Shown here piece after piece: positions 58,211 to 63,252 of a stretch of DNA of 64,000 nt (the stretch's first letter is position 1; the number at the start of each line of letters is the position of its first letter). The DNA is from Candidatus Omnitrophota bacterium (GTDB lineage Bacteria > Omnitrophota > Gorgyraeia > JAFGHF01), in contig CP070837.1 in the NCBI GenBank assembly GCA_020341815.1, forward strand, positions 1,368,195 to 1,432,194, in the 5' to 3' direction. A program made the translations under genes and the position numbers. The notes under the pieces were generated by a model. The model had not been told where the DNA came from and did not search any database. It saw only the letters and a program-made list of their open reading frames with translations.

Positions 58211-59692
58211 ATGAAACTGCTCTTCGTAGCGCTGGATTCAAGGGTAAAGAGATACGGGATAATGTCCTTAAGCGCCTTTTTGAAAAAGGACAAAAGGCAC
58301 CAGGTATTTCTTGAAGAATATACGGATTTTAACACCTTAAAATCCCGTTTTGATGAAATTTCTCCCGATTTTGTGGCCTATAGCTGTATGTCCGGAGAGT
58401 ATAATAAGGCTAGAGAGATAAATCGGCAGTTGAAATCTAAGGTTAAGCCCTTTGTGTCGCTGTGGGGCGGGCCGCATCCTACCTATAGCCAGGAGATAAT
58501 TAACGATGAGGGGGTGGATGCGGTCTGTGTAGGCGAGGGAGAAGGGGCTCTCTTGGAGCTTTGTGACAGATGGCAAGGGGGTCGCAGGCAATACGATATT
58601 AAAAACTGGCTTTTTAAAGTTGACGGGCGCATAATCAAAAATCCCTTAAGGCCCCTTATCGACATAAACACTCTGCCGGTTCCGGATTTTAATATCTTTA
58701 AATCGGGAAAGAAGGAATATGTAGATGTATATGTTACCCGCGGCTGTTACTTCAACTGCACTTATTGTTTTAATCACAGATGGAAAGAGCTTTATAATAA
58801 TTTTGCAAATCCGATAAGGACTTTATCTATAGAGCGCGCCATGGAAGTCCTCAAATACGTAAAGACCGAATTCGCAGATAAGATAAAATACATCTGCTTT
58901 CATGATGATACCCTTCCTATCAAAGATAAAAACTGGATAACGGCTTTCAGTCAGGCCTATAGAGAGCATATCGGGATCCCTTTTTACATCAATATGTATC
59001 CGACCATGGCCGATGAAGAGAACCTGGGCCTGCTTAAGCAGGCGGGATTGTTCAAGGTGAATTTCGCAATGGAATCGGGAAATGAATATATCAGGCAGGA
59101 GGTCCTGGGTAGAAAGATGTCCAACGAGAAAATTTTGAAAGCCGCCGAAATACTTCATAGACACAGGCTTCTCGTTTCCATACAGAATATAACCTGTCTT
59201 CCCAGGGAGGATTTCCGGAAGACCAGGGAGACATTCGAGTTGAATATCAAGTGCAGGCCGCATATCGCAGCCATCTCCAAATTTGTCCCTTTCCCGGGCA
59301 TTAAGCTGACAGAATTGGCTATAAAAGACAATCACCTTAAAAGAGGAGAGTTTGAAGACAAAATTCCGGATGATTACCACTGGAGGAGCCTGTTAAATTT
59401 TAAGGATAAAAAGGATAAATGCAGGATGGAATATATGGTAAATCTTTTTACTTTAGGCGTAGCCTTTCCATTCCTGAAGCCGTTAATATATTTAATGGTG
59501 AAGGCGCCCGACTGGCCGATTATAAAAAGATTCTACGCACATATAGATAATCAGGCCTGGTCTGTGATTACGCATCAGGATTTCGATCAGACAATGAGAA
59601 CCCTGCATAGGAAGAACGAAAGCATAAGGTTGTTTTTCAAGATTATATCTAGAGTGATATTCGCCAGAGAAAAGACCGAAGCCGGCGGATGA
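58211..59692 (+). CDS. B12-binding-domain radical SAM enzyme
   Basis: N-terminal cobalamin-binding Rossmann-like domain. CxxxCxxC cluster YVTRGCYFNCTYC. Confidence 0.75.
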   Translation: MKLLFVALDSRVKRYGIMSLSAFLKKDKRHQVFLEEYTDFNTLKSRFDEISPDFVAYSCMSGEYNKAREINRQLKSKVKPFVSLWGGPHPTYSQEIINDEGVDAVCVGEGEGALLELCDRWQGGRRQYDIKNWLFKVDGRIIKNPLRPLIDINTLPVPDFNIFKSGKKEYVDVYVTRGCYFNCTYCFNHRWKELYNNFANPIRTLSIERAMEVLKYVKTEFADKIKYICFHDDTLPIKDKNWITAFSQAYREHIGIPFYINMYPTMADEENLGLLKQAGLFKVNFAMESGNEYIRQEVLGRKMSNEKILKAAEILHRHRLLVSIQNITCLPREDFRKTRETFELNIKCRPHIAAISKFVPFPGIKLTELAIKDNHLKRGEFEDKIPDDYHWRSLLNFKDKKDKCRMEYMVNLFTLGVAFPFLKPLIYLMVKAPDWPIIKRFYAHIDNQAWSVITHQDFDQTMRTLHRKNESIRLFFKIISRVIFAREKTEAGG

Positions 59693-59865
59693 TTTTTATA
59701 GGAAATTACCTGCCTAAATTCACCCAATCTTTACCCGCCAAAATAGTATCTCTCCTGCTGTAATTTTCCCTTGACACGAAGGCAAAAAAGGCATAAAATA
59801 TACATCGTTCATTTTTAGAACGCTGGAATTAAAATGTTCGATTTTATAAAGAGGATGGTTCAAAA

Positions 59866-61014
59866 ATGCATAAGCCGCACGGCGGAAAATTGATTAACAG
59901 GGTTTTGAATGAGGACGAGCGAAATAAAGTCAGCAAAAAGCTTGAGAGGTTATATCATCTAAAATTAACTGAAGAAGCAACTCAGGATGTATTTAACATA
60001 ACTACAGGCGTCTATAGCCCTCTGGAGGGCTTTATTGGCCGGGAAGATTATATAAATATTTTAGATAATAGACGCCTGGCTTCGGGCCTGCCCTGGACTA
60101 TTCCTATAAGCTTGGATGTGAGCTTGGAAGAGGCGAAAGAATTAGTAAGACATAACGAGGTTTGCCTGTTAACTCCGGAGGCAAAACCGATAGCCCTTTT
60201 GCATATCAAGGATATCTACGAGTTCGATAAGCAGGAGTTGGCTTTGAAGGTATTCGGGACAACCGACGCCGCTCATCCGGGCGTAAGAAGGGTAGGGGCG
60301 ATGAAAGACCGCTTGGTCGAAGGCCTCATAGATTTGATTGACGAGCCCGAGCATCCGTTCGGACAGTATACTTTGAAGCCCCTTGAGACACGGGTGCTTT
60401 TCGAAGAAAAGGGCTGGGTGGATGTGGTCGGATTTCAAACCAGAAATGTCCCTCACCTCGGACACGAATATGTCCAGAAGACCGCCCTGGCCTTTAGCGA
60501 CGGACTTTTTATCAATCCCGTGATTGGCAGAAAGAAAAAGGGAGACTTTAAGGATGAACTCATTCTCAATACTTACGAGACTTTAATAAATAATTATTAC
60601 CTTAAAGAAAAGACGGTTATGTCTGTTTTAAATATGCAGATGAGATATGCGGGCCCCCGGGAGGCAATTTTTCACGCCATTATACGCAAGAATTTCGGCT
60701 GTACCCATTTTATTGTCGGACGGGATCATGCCGGGGTAAGTAATTTCTACCATCCTTTTGCCGCCCATCAAATTTTCGAAGAATTTCCGGATCTGGAAAT
60801 CGTGCCTCTGTTTTTCAAAAGCTTCTTTTATTGTCAGCGTTGCGGCAGTGTGGCCAATGAAAAGACCTGTCCCCACCAGGAAATCGGCCAGATCAATTTT
60901 AGCGGCACAGAGATTAGAAAGTTGTTGCAGGAAGGAAAGCTGCCTTCTCCCGAATTGATGCGTAAGGAAGTAGCCGAGACTATAATTGCCCATAAAGAAC
61001 CTTTTGTCGAATAA
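59866..61014 (+). CDS. sat: sulfate adenylyltransferase (ATP sulfurylase)
   Basis: GFQTRNVPHLGHEY and GRDHAG motifs. Confidence 0.85.
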   Translation: MHKPHGGKLINRVLNEDERNKVSKKLERLYHLKLTEEATQDVFNITTGVYSPLEGFIGREDYINILDNRRLASGLPWTIPISLDVSLEEAKELVRHNEVCLLTPEAKPIALLHIKDIYEFDKQELALKVFGTTDAAHPGVRRVGAMKDRLVEGLIDLIDEPEHPFGQYTLKPLETRVLFEEKGWVDVVGFQTRNVPHLGHEYVQKTALAFSDGLFINPVIGRKKKGDFKDELILNTYETLINNYYLKEKTVMSVLNMQMRYAGPREAIFHAIIRKNFGCTHFIVGRDHAGVSNFYHPFAAHQIFEEFPDLEIVPLFFKSFFYCQRCGSVANEKTCPHQEIGQINFSGTEIRKLLQEGKLPSPELMRKEVAETIIAHKEPFVE

Positions 61015-62571: not shown

Positions 62572-62580
62572 GAGAATGAG

Positions 62581-63252
62581 GTGATTATGGAACAGCGTGG
62601 GTTGACTATATGGTTCACGGGGCTTCCAGGTTCGGGCAAATCCACTATAGCTAACCTGGTGGCAGAGAGATTGAAAGCCGGAAATTATAAAGTGGAGCGC
62701 TTGGATGGCGATATTGTCAGGAAAAGCTTGACCCGGGACTTAGGCTTCTCTAAAGAGGACAGAGACAAGAATATCCAGCGAGTTACCTTTGTGGCAAAAT
62801 TATTGACTCGCAACGGAGTGTTTGTTTTGTCCTCTTTTGTCTCTCCATATCGAGCAGCGCGAGAAAACGCGCGTCGTGAAATCGGTTCATTTTTCGAGGT
62901 CTATGTCAAGTGTTCCTTGCAAGAGTGTATGAGGCGGGATGTCAAGGGTATGTATAAAAAAGCTATGGCCGGAGAGATTAAGGATTTTACCGGTGTTTCC
63001 GACCCTTACGAAGAACCGCAAGAGCCGGAACTGGTTCTTGAGACCGATAAAGAGACCCCCGGCGAAAACGCAGAAAAGGTTTTGAGCAGCCTGGAAGGGT
63101 TAGGATATCTAAAGAGATATCTAAATAAGGAAAGTAAGCCCGAAGAAGGGGATTCGATTTACATCCAAGAGGAAAAGAGGCAAGTTGTCGAGAAATTAAA
63201 ATCACTGGGCTATCTTTTAGATAGAGCCGAAGCCACGATAAAGGAGCTGTAA
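62581..63252 (+). CDS. cysC: adenylyl-sulfate (APS) kinase
   Basis: GLTIWFTGLPGSGKSTIA P-loop and APS-kinase core. GTG 62581 or ATG 62587 start. Confidence 0.85.
   Translation: MIMEQRGLTIWFTGLPGSGKSTIANLVAERLKAGNYKVERLDGDIVRKSLTRDLGFSKEDRDKNIQRVTFVAKLLTRNGVFVLSSFVSPYRAARENARREIGSFFEVYVKCSLQECMRRDVKGMYKKAMAGEIKDFTGVSDPYEEPQEPELVLETDKETPGENAEKVLSSLEGLGYLKRYLNKESKPEEGDSIYIQEEKRQVVEKLKSLGYLLDRAEATIKEL

Follow-up and report, generated by a model that had tools for sequence, protein, structure and literature searches.

Sulfate-activation genes and two predicted B12-binding radical SAM enzymes in a putative surface-glycan locus of an Omnitrophota bacterium with a small genome

The window, that is, the whole stretch of 64,000 nucleotides analysed here, belongs to a Candidatus Omnitrophota MAG with a genome of 1.55 Mb. 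A sugar locus, whose genes all lie on the + strand, opens directly after LptD (46997-49165), with housekeeping genes further upstream. Its first gene encodes a UDP-glucose 6-dehydrogenase (UGDH, 49176-50468) with three UDPG_MGDP_dh Pfam domains, scoring 577.6 bits for the NCBIfam model TuaD and 471 bits for NDP-sugDHase (cutoff 190). The dTDP-sugar (rmlABCD-like) genes follow (50465-53773; Pfam dTDP_sugar_isom/FdtA, NTP_transferase, GDP_Man_Dehyd/Epimerase and RmlD_sub_bind), comprising an RmlC/FdtA-like cupin (50465-50926), RmlA (51007-51738), RmlB (51954-52898) and RmlD (52895-53773; TIGR01214 rmlD, 311 bits, cutoff 224). Next come a WecC/TviB-like NDP-N-acetylhexosamine dehydrogenase (53770-55074; TIGR03026, 457 bits, cutoff 190, with the specific equivalogs all below cutoff) and a TviC-like SDR epimerase (55184-56137; Pfam Epimerase E 2e-60; NF011728 TviC, 226 bits, below cutoff). 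The DegT-family sugar aminotransferase (56118-57239; Pfam DegT E 2.6e-126) is closest to 3-aminotransferases, its best PDB matches being 7b0d, QdtB and WbpE. Finally, a UDP-glucuronate decarboxylase (UXS, 57251-58195) is identified by its PDB match to human UXS1 (E 5e-101, 341 bits, over residues 3-311), ArnA reaching only about 1e-23. The Pfam, NCBIfam and PDB matches bear out the UDP-sugar dehydrogenase, epimerase, aminotransferase and UXS genes named upstream in a preliminary description of this DNA, and the assignment as a nucleotide-sugar/glycan locus is supported. The UGDH, SDR, DegT, GT2 and PMT_2 genes were also considered as an Arn-like (L-Ara4N) set, but this was dropped: the SDR proved to be a genuine UXS, and the aminotransferase falls with the 3-aminotransferases, not with ArnB.

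The four genes under study, rSAM1, sat, rSAM2 and cysC, occupy positions 58211-63252 of the + strand as ORFs with exactly these limits. This order, given in the preliminary description, was recovered from the ORFs, from the domains and from two contigs (L172 and L001) of an independent Logan read assembly of SRR14739666. From the UXS-rSAM1 gap to the cysC-wHTH gap the spacers measure 15, 173, 9, 9 and 9 nt; the earlier statement that all are short is therefore nearly right, only the 173-nt gap before sat departing from it. The 9-nt spacers suggest, at the level of sequence, that sat, rSAM2, cysC and the wHTH gene are co-expressed. The spacer between rSAM1 and sat holds a sigma-70-like promoter candidate (59771-59799, +; TTGACA-17-TAAAAT, 11/12 matches), the best site in 49-64 kb, which is a consensus match in a phylum whose own promoters are uncharacterised. 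No riboswitch or other RNA was found at the locus with Rfam, the sole match in the window being a tRNA (8063-8129). The GC content (0.43-0.46) and GC3 (0.50-0.53) of the four genes fall inside the range of their neighbours, so that there is no compositional sign of horizontal transfer, and this possibility was set aside.

The sat gene (59866-61014, +) encodes a homo-oligomeric-type ATP sulfurylase of 382 aa (Pfam ATP-sulfurylase E 6e-87, PUA_2 E 8e-48), above the curated cutoffs of both NF003166 (497.6 bits, cutoff 387) and TIGR00339 (370.9, cutoff 322.95). Its translation contains FQTRNVPHLGH and VGRDHAG, which we take to be the catalytic Sat motifs QxRN..HxxH and GRDHAG. The cysC product (62581-63252, +) is an APS kinase of 223 aa (Pfam APS_kinase E 3.5e-62) with a C-terminal extension of about 45 aa, the P-loop GLPGSGKST and LDGD, which likewise exceeds the curated cutoffs (NF002059, 247.8 bits, cutoff 244; TIGR00455, 228.7, cutoff 138.7). 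Both genes sit between the UXS gene and a GT2 gene, i.e. inside the glycan cluster.

Downstream of cysC lies a gene for a wHTH (MarR_EPS-like) protein with a Rossmann-like C-terminal domain (63262-63882, +). Its N-terminal half (HTH_24 E 2.7e-10) is related to the MarR-type EPS regulator initially proposed, but it scores 72.2 bits for TIGR04176 MarR_EPS, below the 88-bit cutoff and over residues 17-104 only, and the additional C-terminal half matches Methyltransf_14 (E 2e-6). An orthologue with 71% identity takes the same position in another Omnitrophota locus, L002. The window ends within the start of a GT2 polyprenyl-phosphate glycosyltransferase gene (63995-64000, +), which continues on contig L001 and is followed there by an SDR and a PMT_2/Agl23-like GT-C gene (1637-2341, 2361-3293 and 3312-4100); the NCBIfam matches are AglJ-like (E 1.8e-25) and Agl23-like (E 4e-9), both below cutoff.

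The glycosyltransferases expected past 64 kb were hence found, but the sulfotransferase was not, either by Pfam or by motif, in the 2.5 kb downstream of the window. Its absence from view within the window was confirmed too: no Pfam sulfotransferase family was matched by window ORFs of at least 150 aa or by the L001 genes, and no 5'-PSB-like [KR][SACT]G[ST][ST] motif occurs in the window, L001 or L002. Literature searches returned nothing on Omnitrophota sulfation or on alkaline-phosphatase-superfamily sulfotransferases.

The two radical SAM proteins, rSAM1 (58211-59692, +, 493 aa) and rSAM2 (61024-62571, +, 515 aa), are 22% identical to each other. Both possess the features of class B, namely an N-terminal B12-binding Rossmann domain (Pfam B12-binding E 1e-13 in rSAM1 and 1e-19 in rSAM2), a radical SAM core (Radical_SAM E 2e-18 and 7e-20) and a CxxxCxxC motif (C179/C183/C186 in the rSAM1 translation, C218/C222/C225 in that of rSAM2), and their predicted structures both show the class-B architecture. 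When scored against the named NCBIfam B12-rSAM families (HpnJ, BchE, PhpK, BzaD, MgmA/TIGR04014, the ladderane family TIGR04072, AprD4, HpnR and others), both missed all of them by far, the best scores being 126 bits for rSAM2 with HpnJ (cutoff 578) and 89 bits for rSAM1 with TIGR04013 (cutoff 251). The classification that had been proposed for these proteins gave no match to cofactor-maturation families. Moreover, their identity to class B enzymes of solved structure, MgmA/QCMT (9CCB), TsrM (6WTE), CysS (9N1B), TokK (7KDX) and OxsB (5UL2), is only 14-22%, and these known enzymes serve RiPP, antibiotic, cofactor or MCR maturation, whereas the window proteins belong to surface-glycan loci. Judged by sequence, their families, F1 (rSAM1) and F2 (rSAM2), appear to be separate and biochemically uncharacterised families of class-B-type radical SAM enzymes.

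The closer relatives of the two proteins are encoded in loci for polysaccharides or nonulosonic acids, where tandem pairs of B12-rSAM genes are frequent. The rSAM2 orthologues in L002, L003, L004, L005 and L168 have flippase, methyltransferase, SDR or NTP-transferase neighbours, with a second B12-rSAM adjoining in four of the five, and a more distant relative (L170) repeats the glycan-locus pattern. Relatives of rSAM1 in L084, L086 and L087 share their loci with NeuB, CMP-sugar synthetase or DegT genes, further B12-rSAMs being present in L084 and L086. Among 80 rSAM2-anchored genome loci, at least two B12-rSAM genes occur in 32 and at least one detectable glycan gene in 42. In addition, domain fusions join an rSAM1-like protein to a polysaccharide deacetylase (P0144) and rSAM2-like proteins to a class I methyltransferase (P0017, P0064). 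Nothing was found in literature searches on B12-rSAM enzymes in O-antigen, capsule or nonulosonic-acid loci.

As for the reaction catalysed, the predicted folds of both proteins match MgmA, AprD4, TsrM and CysS about equally, so that methylation is likely as far as the models go; the fold nevertheless suits other chemistries besides C-methylation, and cobalamin binding is itself a prediction. AprD4 (6FD2), a radical SAM diol-dehydratase whose substrate is the aminoglycoside paromamine, is the best structural neighbour of rSAM2 and the second-best of rSAM1. It is a sugar-modifying enzyme that resembles the window proteins in its B12-like N-terminal domain, but it comes from an aminoglycoside pathway, and its model NF033070 gives the two rSAMs 52.9 and 19.9 bits, far below the cutoff of 500. 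The C-methylation or other radical modification first suggested is thus in keeping with the class-B fold and the glycan context, while its methylation part is weakened by a diol-dehydratase that is structurally just as close. It is conceivable, though less likely than not, that the two enzymes are not methyltransferases and instead carry out some other radical conversion of a sugar, for example epimerisation, the AprD4 type of deoxygenation or dehydration, or a ring contraction of the OxsB or HpnJ type, cobalamin being used differently or not at all. Against this, the methyl-transferring MgmA, TsrM and CysS are among those equal matches, the Pfam B12-binding domain scores exceed the cutoff, and most characterised class B radical SAM members are methylases.

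With regard to sulfate activation, in most cysC relatives, amounting to more than 45 loci, sat and cysC are separated by an NPP-like alkaline-phosphatase-family gene. This gene is absent from the window, where rSAM2 takes the sat-X-cysC slot with 9-nt spacers on both sides. In L002, cysC, with carbamoyltransferase and FkbM-type methyltransferase genes around it, is found upstream of the rSAM pair at a distance of 3.3 kb; there the NPP-like gene still has its usual slot, and the rSAM2 orthologue stands 4.8 kb from cysC. The Woesearchaeota locus L006, in which GT1, methyltransferase, rSAM and flippase genes accompany sat and cysC, has an NT5C nucleotidase in the slot. Next to the closest relatives of cysC stand genes for a TviC-like protein, an NDP-sugar dehydrogenase and a UGDH. 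Such a compact cassette in Candidatus Aminicenantes, undescribed as far as could be found, runs sat, NPP-like gene, cysC, TviC-like gene, NDP-sugar dehydrogenase, UGDH; its sat and cysC share 56-74% identity with their counterparts in the window, and the linked UDP-sugar genes are of the same kinds, but in the window these lie upstream instead of downstream and rSAM2 stands where the NPP-like gene would be.

The reading that we prefer, with a probability of roughly 0.55, is that the genes form the glycan-tailoring end of a surface locus in this small-genome Omnitrophota bacterium, with PAPS made for sulfation and the rSAMs for radical tailoring. The upstream genes would supply UDP-GlcA, UDP-Xyl, a dTDP-deoxyhexose, an N-acetylhexosaminuronic acid and an amino sugar. 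Going by family membership, Sat forms APS from sulfate and ATP, and CysC converts APS to PAPS by phosphorylation; this PAPS would most likely be used for glycan sulfation by a sulfotransferase encoded elsewhere or unrecognised in type. The rSAM1 and rSAM2 families would represent mix-and-match glycan-tailoring modules, usually in adjacent pairs; the most likely first step of each enzyme is hydrogen abstraction at a sugar carbon that is not activated, which would be followed either by delivery of a methyl group carried on cobalamin (C-methylation, which we favour) or by a redox-neutral rearrangement or deoxygenation. The four genes from sat to the wHTH gene would be read as a single transcription unit starting in the pre-sat spacer, which would probably extend past the window over the GT2, SDR and GT-C genes. 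On this view the PAPS and rSAM genes belong to modules independent of each other, whose interleaving would have come about by rearrangement in this lineage and would not mark a conserved functional unit. The sulfated glycan of the preliminary description retains the support of PAPS genes within a glycan locus and of the parallels in L002 and L006, but the sulfotransferase was not found.

A less probable explanation, which we regard as unlikely, is that sat and cysC are general assimilatory genes or a general PAPS supply that landed in the sugar locus, the rSAMs tailoring the glycan independently. It agrees with the failure to find a sulfotransferase nearby (window, L001, L002), with the housekeeping genes flanking the homologous Aminicenantes cassette, and with the rarity of the combination, nearly unique to the window's genome: sat and cysC accompany one of 80 rSAM-anchored loci and a B12-rSAM none of 80 cysC-anchored loci, and the co-location may be accidental. 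On the other hand, the ORFs scanned with Pfam in the 64 kb included neither cysH (PAPS/APS reductase) nor a gene for a sulfite reductase or sulfate transporter, and APS kinase is the step required for sulfation. Furthermore, cysC recurs among glycan-tailoring genes in L002 and L006, even the Aminicenantes cassette is fused to genes of UDP-sugar oxidation and epimerisation, and the tight spacing of cysC with rSAM2 and the wHTH gene suggests co-expression.

It is also improbable that PAPS serves to sulfate a non-glycan molecule (for example a lipid, a protein tyrosine or a small molecule). The failure to find a sulfotransferase leaves room for such an acceptor; however, the neighbours on both sides are all sugar-nucleotide or glycosyl-transfer genes, and the same neighbourhood is seen in L002 and L006. 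Least credible of all is a direct coupling in which rSAM2 acts on APS, PAPS or a sulfated intermediate, e.g. to form a radical C-S or other unusual sulfur linkage: its position in a slot filled elsewhere by the NPP-like gene or the nucleotidase speaks for it, but the orthologues in L003, L004, L005 and L168 have no sat or cysC nearby and that of L002 is distant from cysC while the NPP-like gene stays in position. To our knowledge, there is no precedent for a radical SAM enzyme coupled directly to APS or PAPS.

Returning to the tailoring of a sulfated glycan, a related case of dedicated sulfate activation is that of the rhizobial NodPQ/NodH. PAPS genes together with a sulfotransferase are a hallmark of sulfated-polysaccharide clusters, and in Vibrio sp. 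KMM 8419, whose capsule is chemically proven to be sulfated, the polysaccharide cluster contains PAPS genes in the form of extra cysDNC copies, along with sulfotransferases (PMC11641403). The window resembles the Vibrio cluster in having sulfate-activation genes within a glycan locus with rml and UDP-sugar genes. Both known systems use a heterodimeric CysDN and include recognisable PAPS-dependent sulfotransferases, whereas the window has a Sat-type sulfurylase, interleaved B12-type rSAM genes and no detectable sulfotransferase.

If the preferred reading is true, small-genome Omnitrophota invest in a glycan both sulfated and modified at unactivated carbons, which bears on the partner interactions of these ultra-small, possibly host-attached cells. 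F1 and F2 stand for a large number of radical enzymes of glycan tailoring, none of them characterised, which are direct targets for enzymology. A testable lead on PAPS use or recycling in these lineages comes from the lack of a recognised sulfotransferase combined with the NPP-like gene that relatives conserve between sat and cysC. A bolder and quite speculative proposal, to which we give little credence, joins both points: tandem F1/F2 rSAMs would be a widespread and wholly uncharacterised class that tailors surface glycans in uncultured anaerobes, and glycan sulfation there would proceed without a canonical sulfotransferase. The lineages concerned are Omnitrophota, Firestonebacteria, anammox Planctomycetota, Elusimicrobiota, CPR and DPANN. 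The candidate for sulfuryl transfer would be a non-canonical enzyme such as the relatives' cytoplasmic NPP-like protein encoded between sat and cysC, its role being taken in the window's genome by another, unrecognised protein.

An antisense ORF at 60628-61797 (389 aa), without a PDB match, was taken as a by-product of composition. Similar ORFs are also present opposite sat in relatives.

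The four genes and their surroundings are best read, with a probability of about 0.55, as a surface-glycan locus carrying two independent tailoring modules that are partly co-transcribed. In the first, sat and cysC would supply PAPS for sulfation of the surface glycan; in the second, the two B12-binding radical SAM proteins, rSAM1 and rSAM2, would modify sugar carbons, and a rearrangement would have joined both. Open reading frames were found exactly where the preliminary description had placed them, all on the forward strand: rSAM1 (58211-59692; Pfam B12-binding and Radical_SAM), sat (59866-61014; ATP-sulfurylase and PUA_2), rSAM2 (61024-62571; B12-binding and Radical_SAM) and cysC (62581-63252; APS_kinase), with sat and cysC scoring above the curated NCBIfam cutoffs. 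The sat/cysC catalytic motifs and the rSAM cluster-binding motifs, read in the translations, are intact. The proteins of the locus (UCB56913.1 to UCB56915.1) belong to a 1.55 Mb contig of a Candidatus Omnitrophota MAG, and the gene order was seen again on two contigs (L172 and L001) of an independent Logan assembly of SRR14739666; the arrangement is therefore not a MAG assembly artefact.

Housekeeping genes occupy 30 to 46 kb (MiaB, MiaA, HflX, HrcA-GrpE-DnaK-DnaJ, AccD, an ABC ATPase, two GGDEF proteins and transaldolase), and LptD is the gene before the start of the sugar locus. The latter comprises, in order, UGDH, a cupin, RmlA, RmlB, RmlD, an NDP-N-acetylhexosamine dehydrogenase, a TviC-like epimerase, a DegT aminotransferase (closest to the 3-aminotransferases QdtB and WbpE) and a true UXS, followed by rSAM1. 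A 173-nt spacer then leads to sat, rSAM2, cysC and a winged-helix (wHTH) gene, separated from each other by 9 nt, and the best sigma-70-like site within 49-64 kb lies in that spacer (59771-59799). We infer that these last four genes form a transcription unit of their own. The wHTH gene (63262-63882), previously described as a MarR-type EPS regulator, does encode an N-terminal MarR_EPS-like wHTH, but with a score below the cutoff and as part of a 206-aa fusion, whose C-terminal Rossmann-like domain weakly matches the C-terminal part of Methyltransf_14, C2185-like_N and the N-terminus of CapD/WbpM-type dehydrogenases. Another Omnitrophota has the fusion conserved in the corresponding place (L002:7437-8057, 71% identity), and its product may be a nucleotide-sugar-sensing regulator. 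Past the window end, contig L001 carries a GT2 polyprenyl-phosphate glycosyltransferase-like gene, then a further SDR and a PMT_2/Agl23-like GT-C.

From their family membership, sat and cysC are predicted to make PAPS, and the context suggests that it is used to sulfate the glycan of this locus. The lack of a visible sulfotransferase was borne out, since no Pfam sulfotransferase family matched among the window ORFs of at least 150 aa, and the search beyond the window, among the L001 genes, was equally negative. Moreover, a 5'-PSB-like motif was absent from all ORFs of at least 100 aa in the window, L001 and L002. A study of a sulfated Vibrio capsule gives the joint presence of PAPS and sulfotransferase genes as the hallmark of sulfated-polysaccharide clusters (PMC11641403); only the PAPS half of it was found here. 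Glycan clusters with dedicated PAPS synthesis are already known, and what is new here is the Sat-type sulfurylase, the uncharacterised B12-rSAM families and the absence of a recognisable sulfotransferase.

The closest relatives of cysC, with 56-74% identity, are found in Candidatus Aminicenantes, in a conserved cassette of sat, an alkaline-phosphatase-family gene (NPP-like, PF01663), cysC, a TviC-like gene, an NDP-sugar dehydrogenase and UGDH, with housekeeping genes on the flanks. Neither cysH, sulfite reductase nor sulfotransferase families were found among the annotated recurrent neighbours of the cysC relatives. A housekeeping role for sat/cysC is considered rather improbable. Direct coupling between rSAM and PAPS chemistry is unlikely, because most rSAM2 orthologues occur without sat or cysC.

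The sat/cysC genes are seldom combined with rSAM genes, whichever of the two is taken as the anchor. Both sat and cysC were present in only one of the 80 genome loci anchored on rSAM2 (L006, Woesearchaeota), and among 80 metagenome loci centred on the closest cysC relatives, none had a B12-rSAM within 7 kb. In the nearest Omnitrophota relative (L002), cysC is located 3.3 kb upstream of the rSAM pair, with carbamoyltransferase, SxtJ-like, DUF5989 and FkbM-type methyltransferase genes in between, and the pair is followed by the same wHTH gene and a flippase. The order in L006 is sat, an NT5C nucleotidase, cysC, a membrane protein, a methyltransferase, GT1, rSAM, a methyltransferase and a flippase. 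From these placements, sulfate activation is a recurrent module of such glycan loci, beside several other tailoring modules, and the strict interleaving of sat and cysC with the rSAM genes seen here is a local rearrangement.

The carbamoyltransferase (Carbam_trans_N/C) is directly downstream of cysC in four loci (L002:854-3267, where the small SxtJ-like and DUF5989 genes come next, and three more cysC loci). This placement suggests tailoring by O-carbamoylation in addition to sulfation. In addition, a TauE/SafE-family anion permease is encoded at the window start (81-746), 59 kb from sat, and in three cysC loci (e.g. L103:9709-10485) the gene immediately downstream of cysC is a TauE gene, suggesting a link to sulfate or sulfite transport in these relatives.

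In L002 and more than 45 related loci, the NPP-like gene stands between sat and cysC; the window has no homologue, rSAM2 occupying that position. The cassette was observed in loci L088-L167 (e.g. L094:7353-11502 and L090:7266-14139) and partially in L002:3-215. The encoded protein, of roughly 460 aa, starts directly at the catalytic core, without an N-terminal signal-like extension, and retains the NPP metal-ligand set, with Thr as the consensus residue at the nucleophile position. No name was found for it in NCBIfam and no literature was found. It may act as a PAP/APS nucleotidase or as a sulfuryl transferase of a non-canonical kind. In the Woesearchaeota locus (L006:5007-7224), the same position is held by the NT5C-family 5'(3')-nucleotidase, and its occupation by two non-homologous genes hints at a nucleotide (PAP?) phosphatase function. 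Further NPP-like paralogues are found beside GT1/PMT_2 genes in L096 and beside a TauE gene in L103. This conserved gene is a more interesting and general lead, as are the unstudied families of tandem B12-rSAMs that uncultured anaerobes carry in their glycan loci.

As regards these families, rSAM1 and rSAM2 share only 22% identity, and both score below the cutoffs of all named NCBIfam families (at best 126 bits for HpnJ, with a cutoff of 578, and 89 bits for TIGR04013, with a cutoff of 251). The nearest solved structure by sequence is for both MgmA (9CCB), the MCR glutamine C-methylase (E-values of 3.7e-14 and 5.9e-6). AlphaFold modelled both proteins with confidence (pLDDT 79 and 90, pTM 0.82 and 0.87), and the predicted fold does not discriminate between methyl transfer and other radical sugar chemistry.

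Orthologues of rSAM2 with 60-75% identity were found in five loci (L002, Omnitrophota; L003; L004, Firestonebacteria; L005, Planctomycetia; L168), all surrounded by flippase, class I methyltransferase, SDR or NTP-transferase genes and four with a directly adjoining second B12-rSAM, and a more distant locus (L170, 43%) holds three radical SAM genes among glycosyltransferases. The relatives of rSAM1, with 43-49% identity (L084/085; L086, Scalinduaceae; L087, Verrucomicrobiota), are accompanied by NeuB, CMP-sugar synthetase or DegT genes, and in L084/085 and L086 also by additional B12-rSAMs. All-against-all comparison gave two coherent families, F1 (rSAM1) and F2 (rSAM2), whose partners differ between genomes, and which behave as mix-and-match modules. 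Of the 80 genome loci around rSAM2 relatives, 32 have at least two B12-rSAM genes (11 at least three), and at least 42 contain a detectable glycan gene. Furthermore, natural fusions of an rSAM1-like protein with a polysaccharide deacetylase domain (P0144) and of rSAM2-like proteins with a class I SAM methyltransferase domain (P0017, P0064) point to carbohydrate substrates. Thus, of the C-methylation or other radical modification first proposed for the pair, action on sugars is supported by this comparative context, and methylation is a preference, not a result. Classification with cofactor-maturation families, which would have told against the proposal, was not found, the relatives lying in glycan loci.

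Several other features of the window deserve mention. A second small glycan-tailoring cluster (25488-30275) comprises a formyltransferase-like gene, a polysaccharide deacetylase, a HisF/HisH-like fusion protein of 552 aa and an ORF of 433 aa that carries an SGGKDS PP-loop and matches no Pfam family; it appears to resemble the WbuX/WbuY/WbuZ acetamidino-sugar set. A long antisense ORF (60628-61797, reverse strand, 389 aa) lies opposite sat and also rSAM2, and such ORFs, of up to 441 aa, are found opposite sat in many relatives (L097:7013-8338, reverse strand, and about 15 other loci); there was no PDB match, and they are thus probably not genes but a consequence of the codon composition of sat. 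On the reverse strand at 21673-24152, where AT skew is strongly negative and GC skew reversed, two ORFs of 496 and 167 aa, matching no Pfam family, have signal-like N-termini followed by long runs of short charged repeats (..QAQDRxDLL..). Finally, the region 2299-11161, which may be an integrated island, contains a type I restriction-modification system (HsdR, HsdM, HsdS), then a tRNA (8063-8129) and a stretch of 33% GC with three ORFs having no family or only a faint proteasome-like match.
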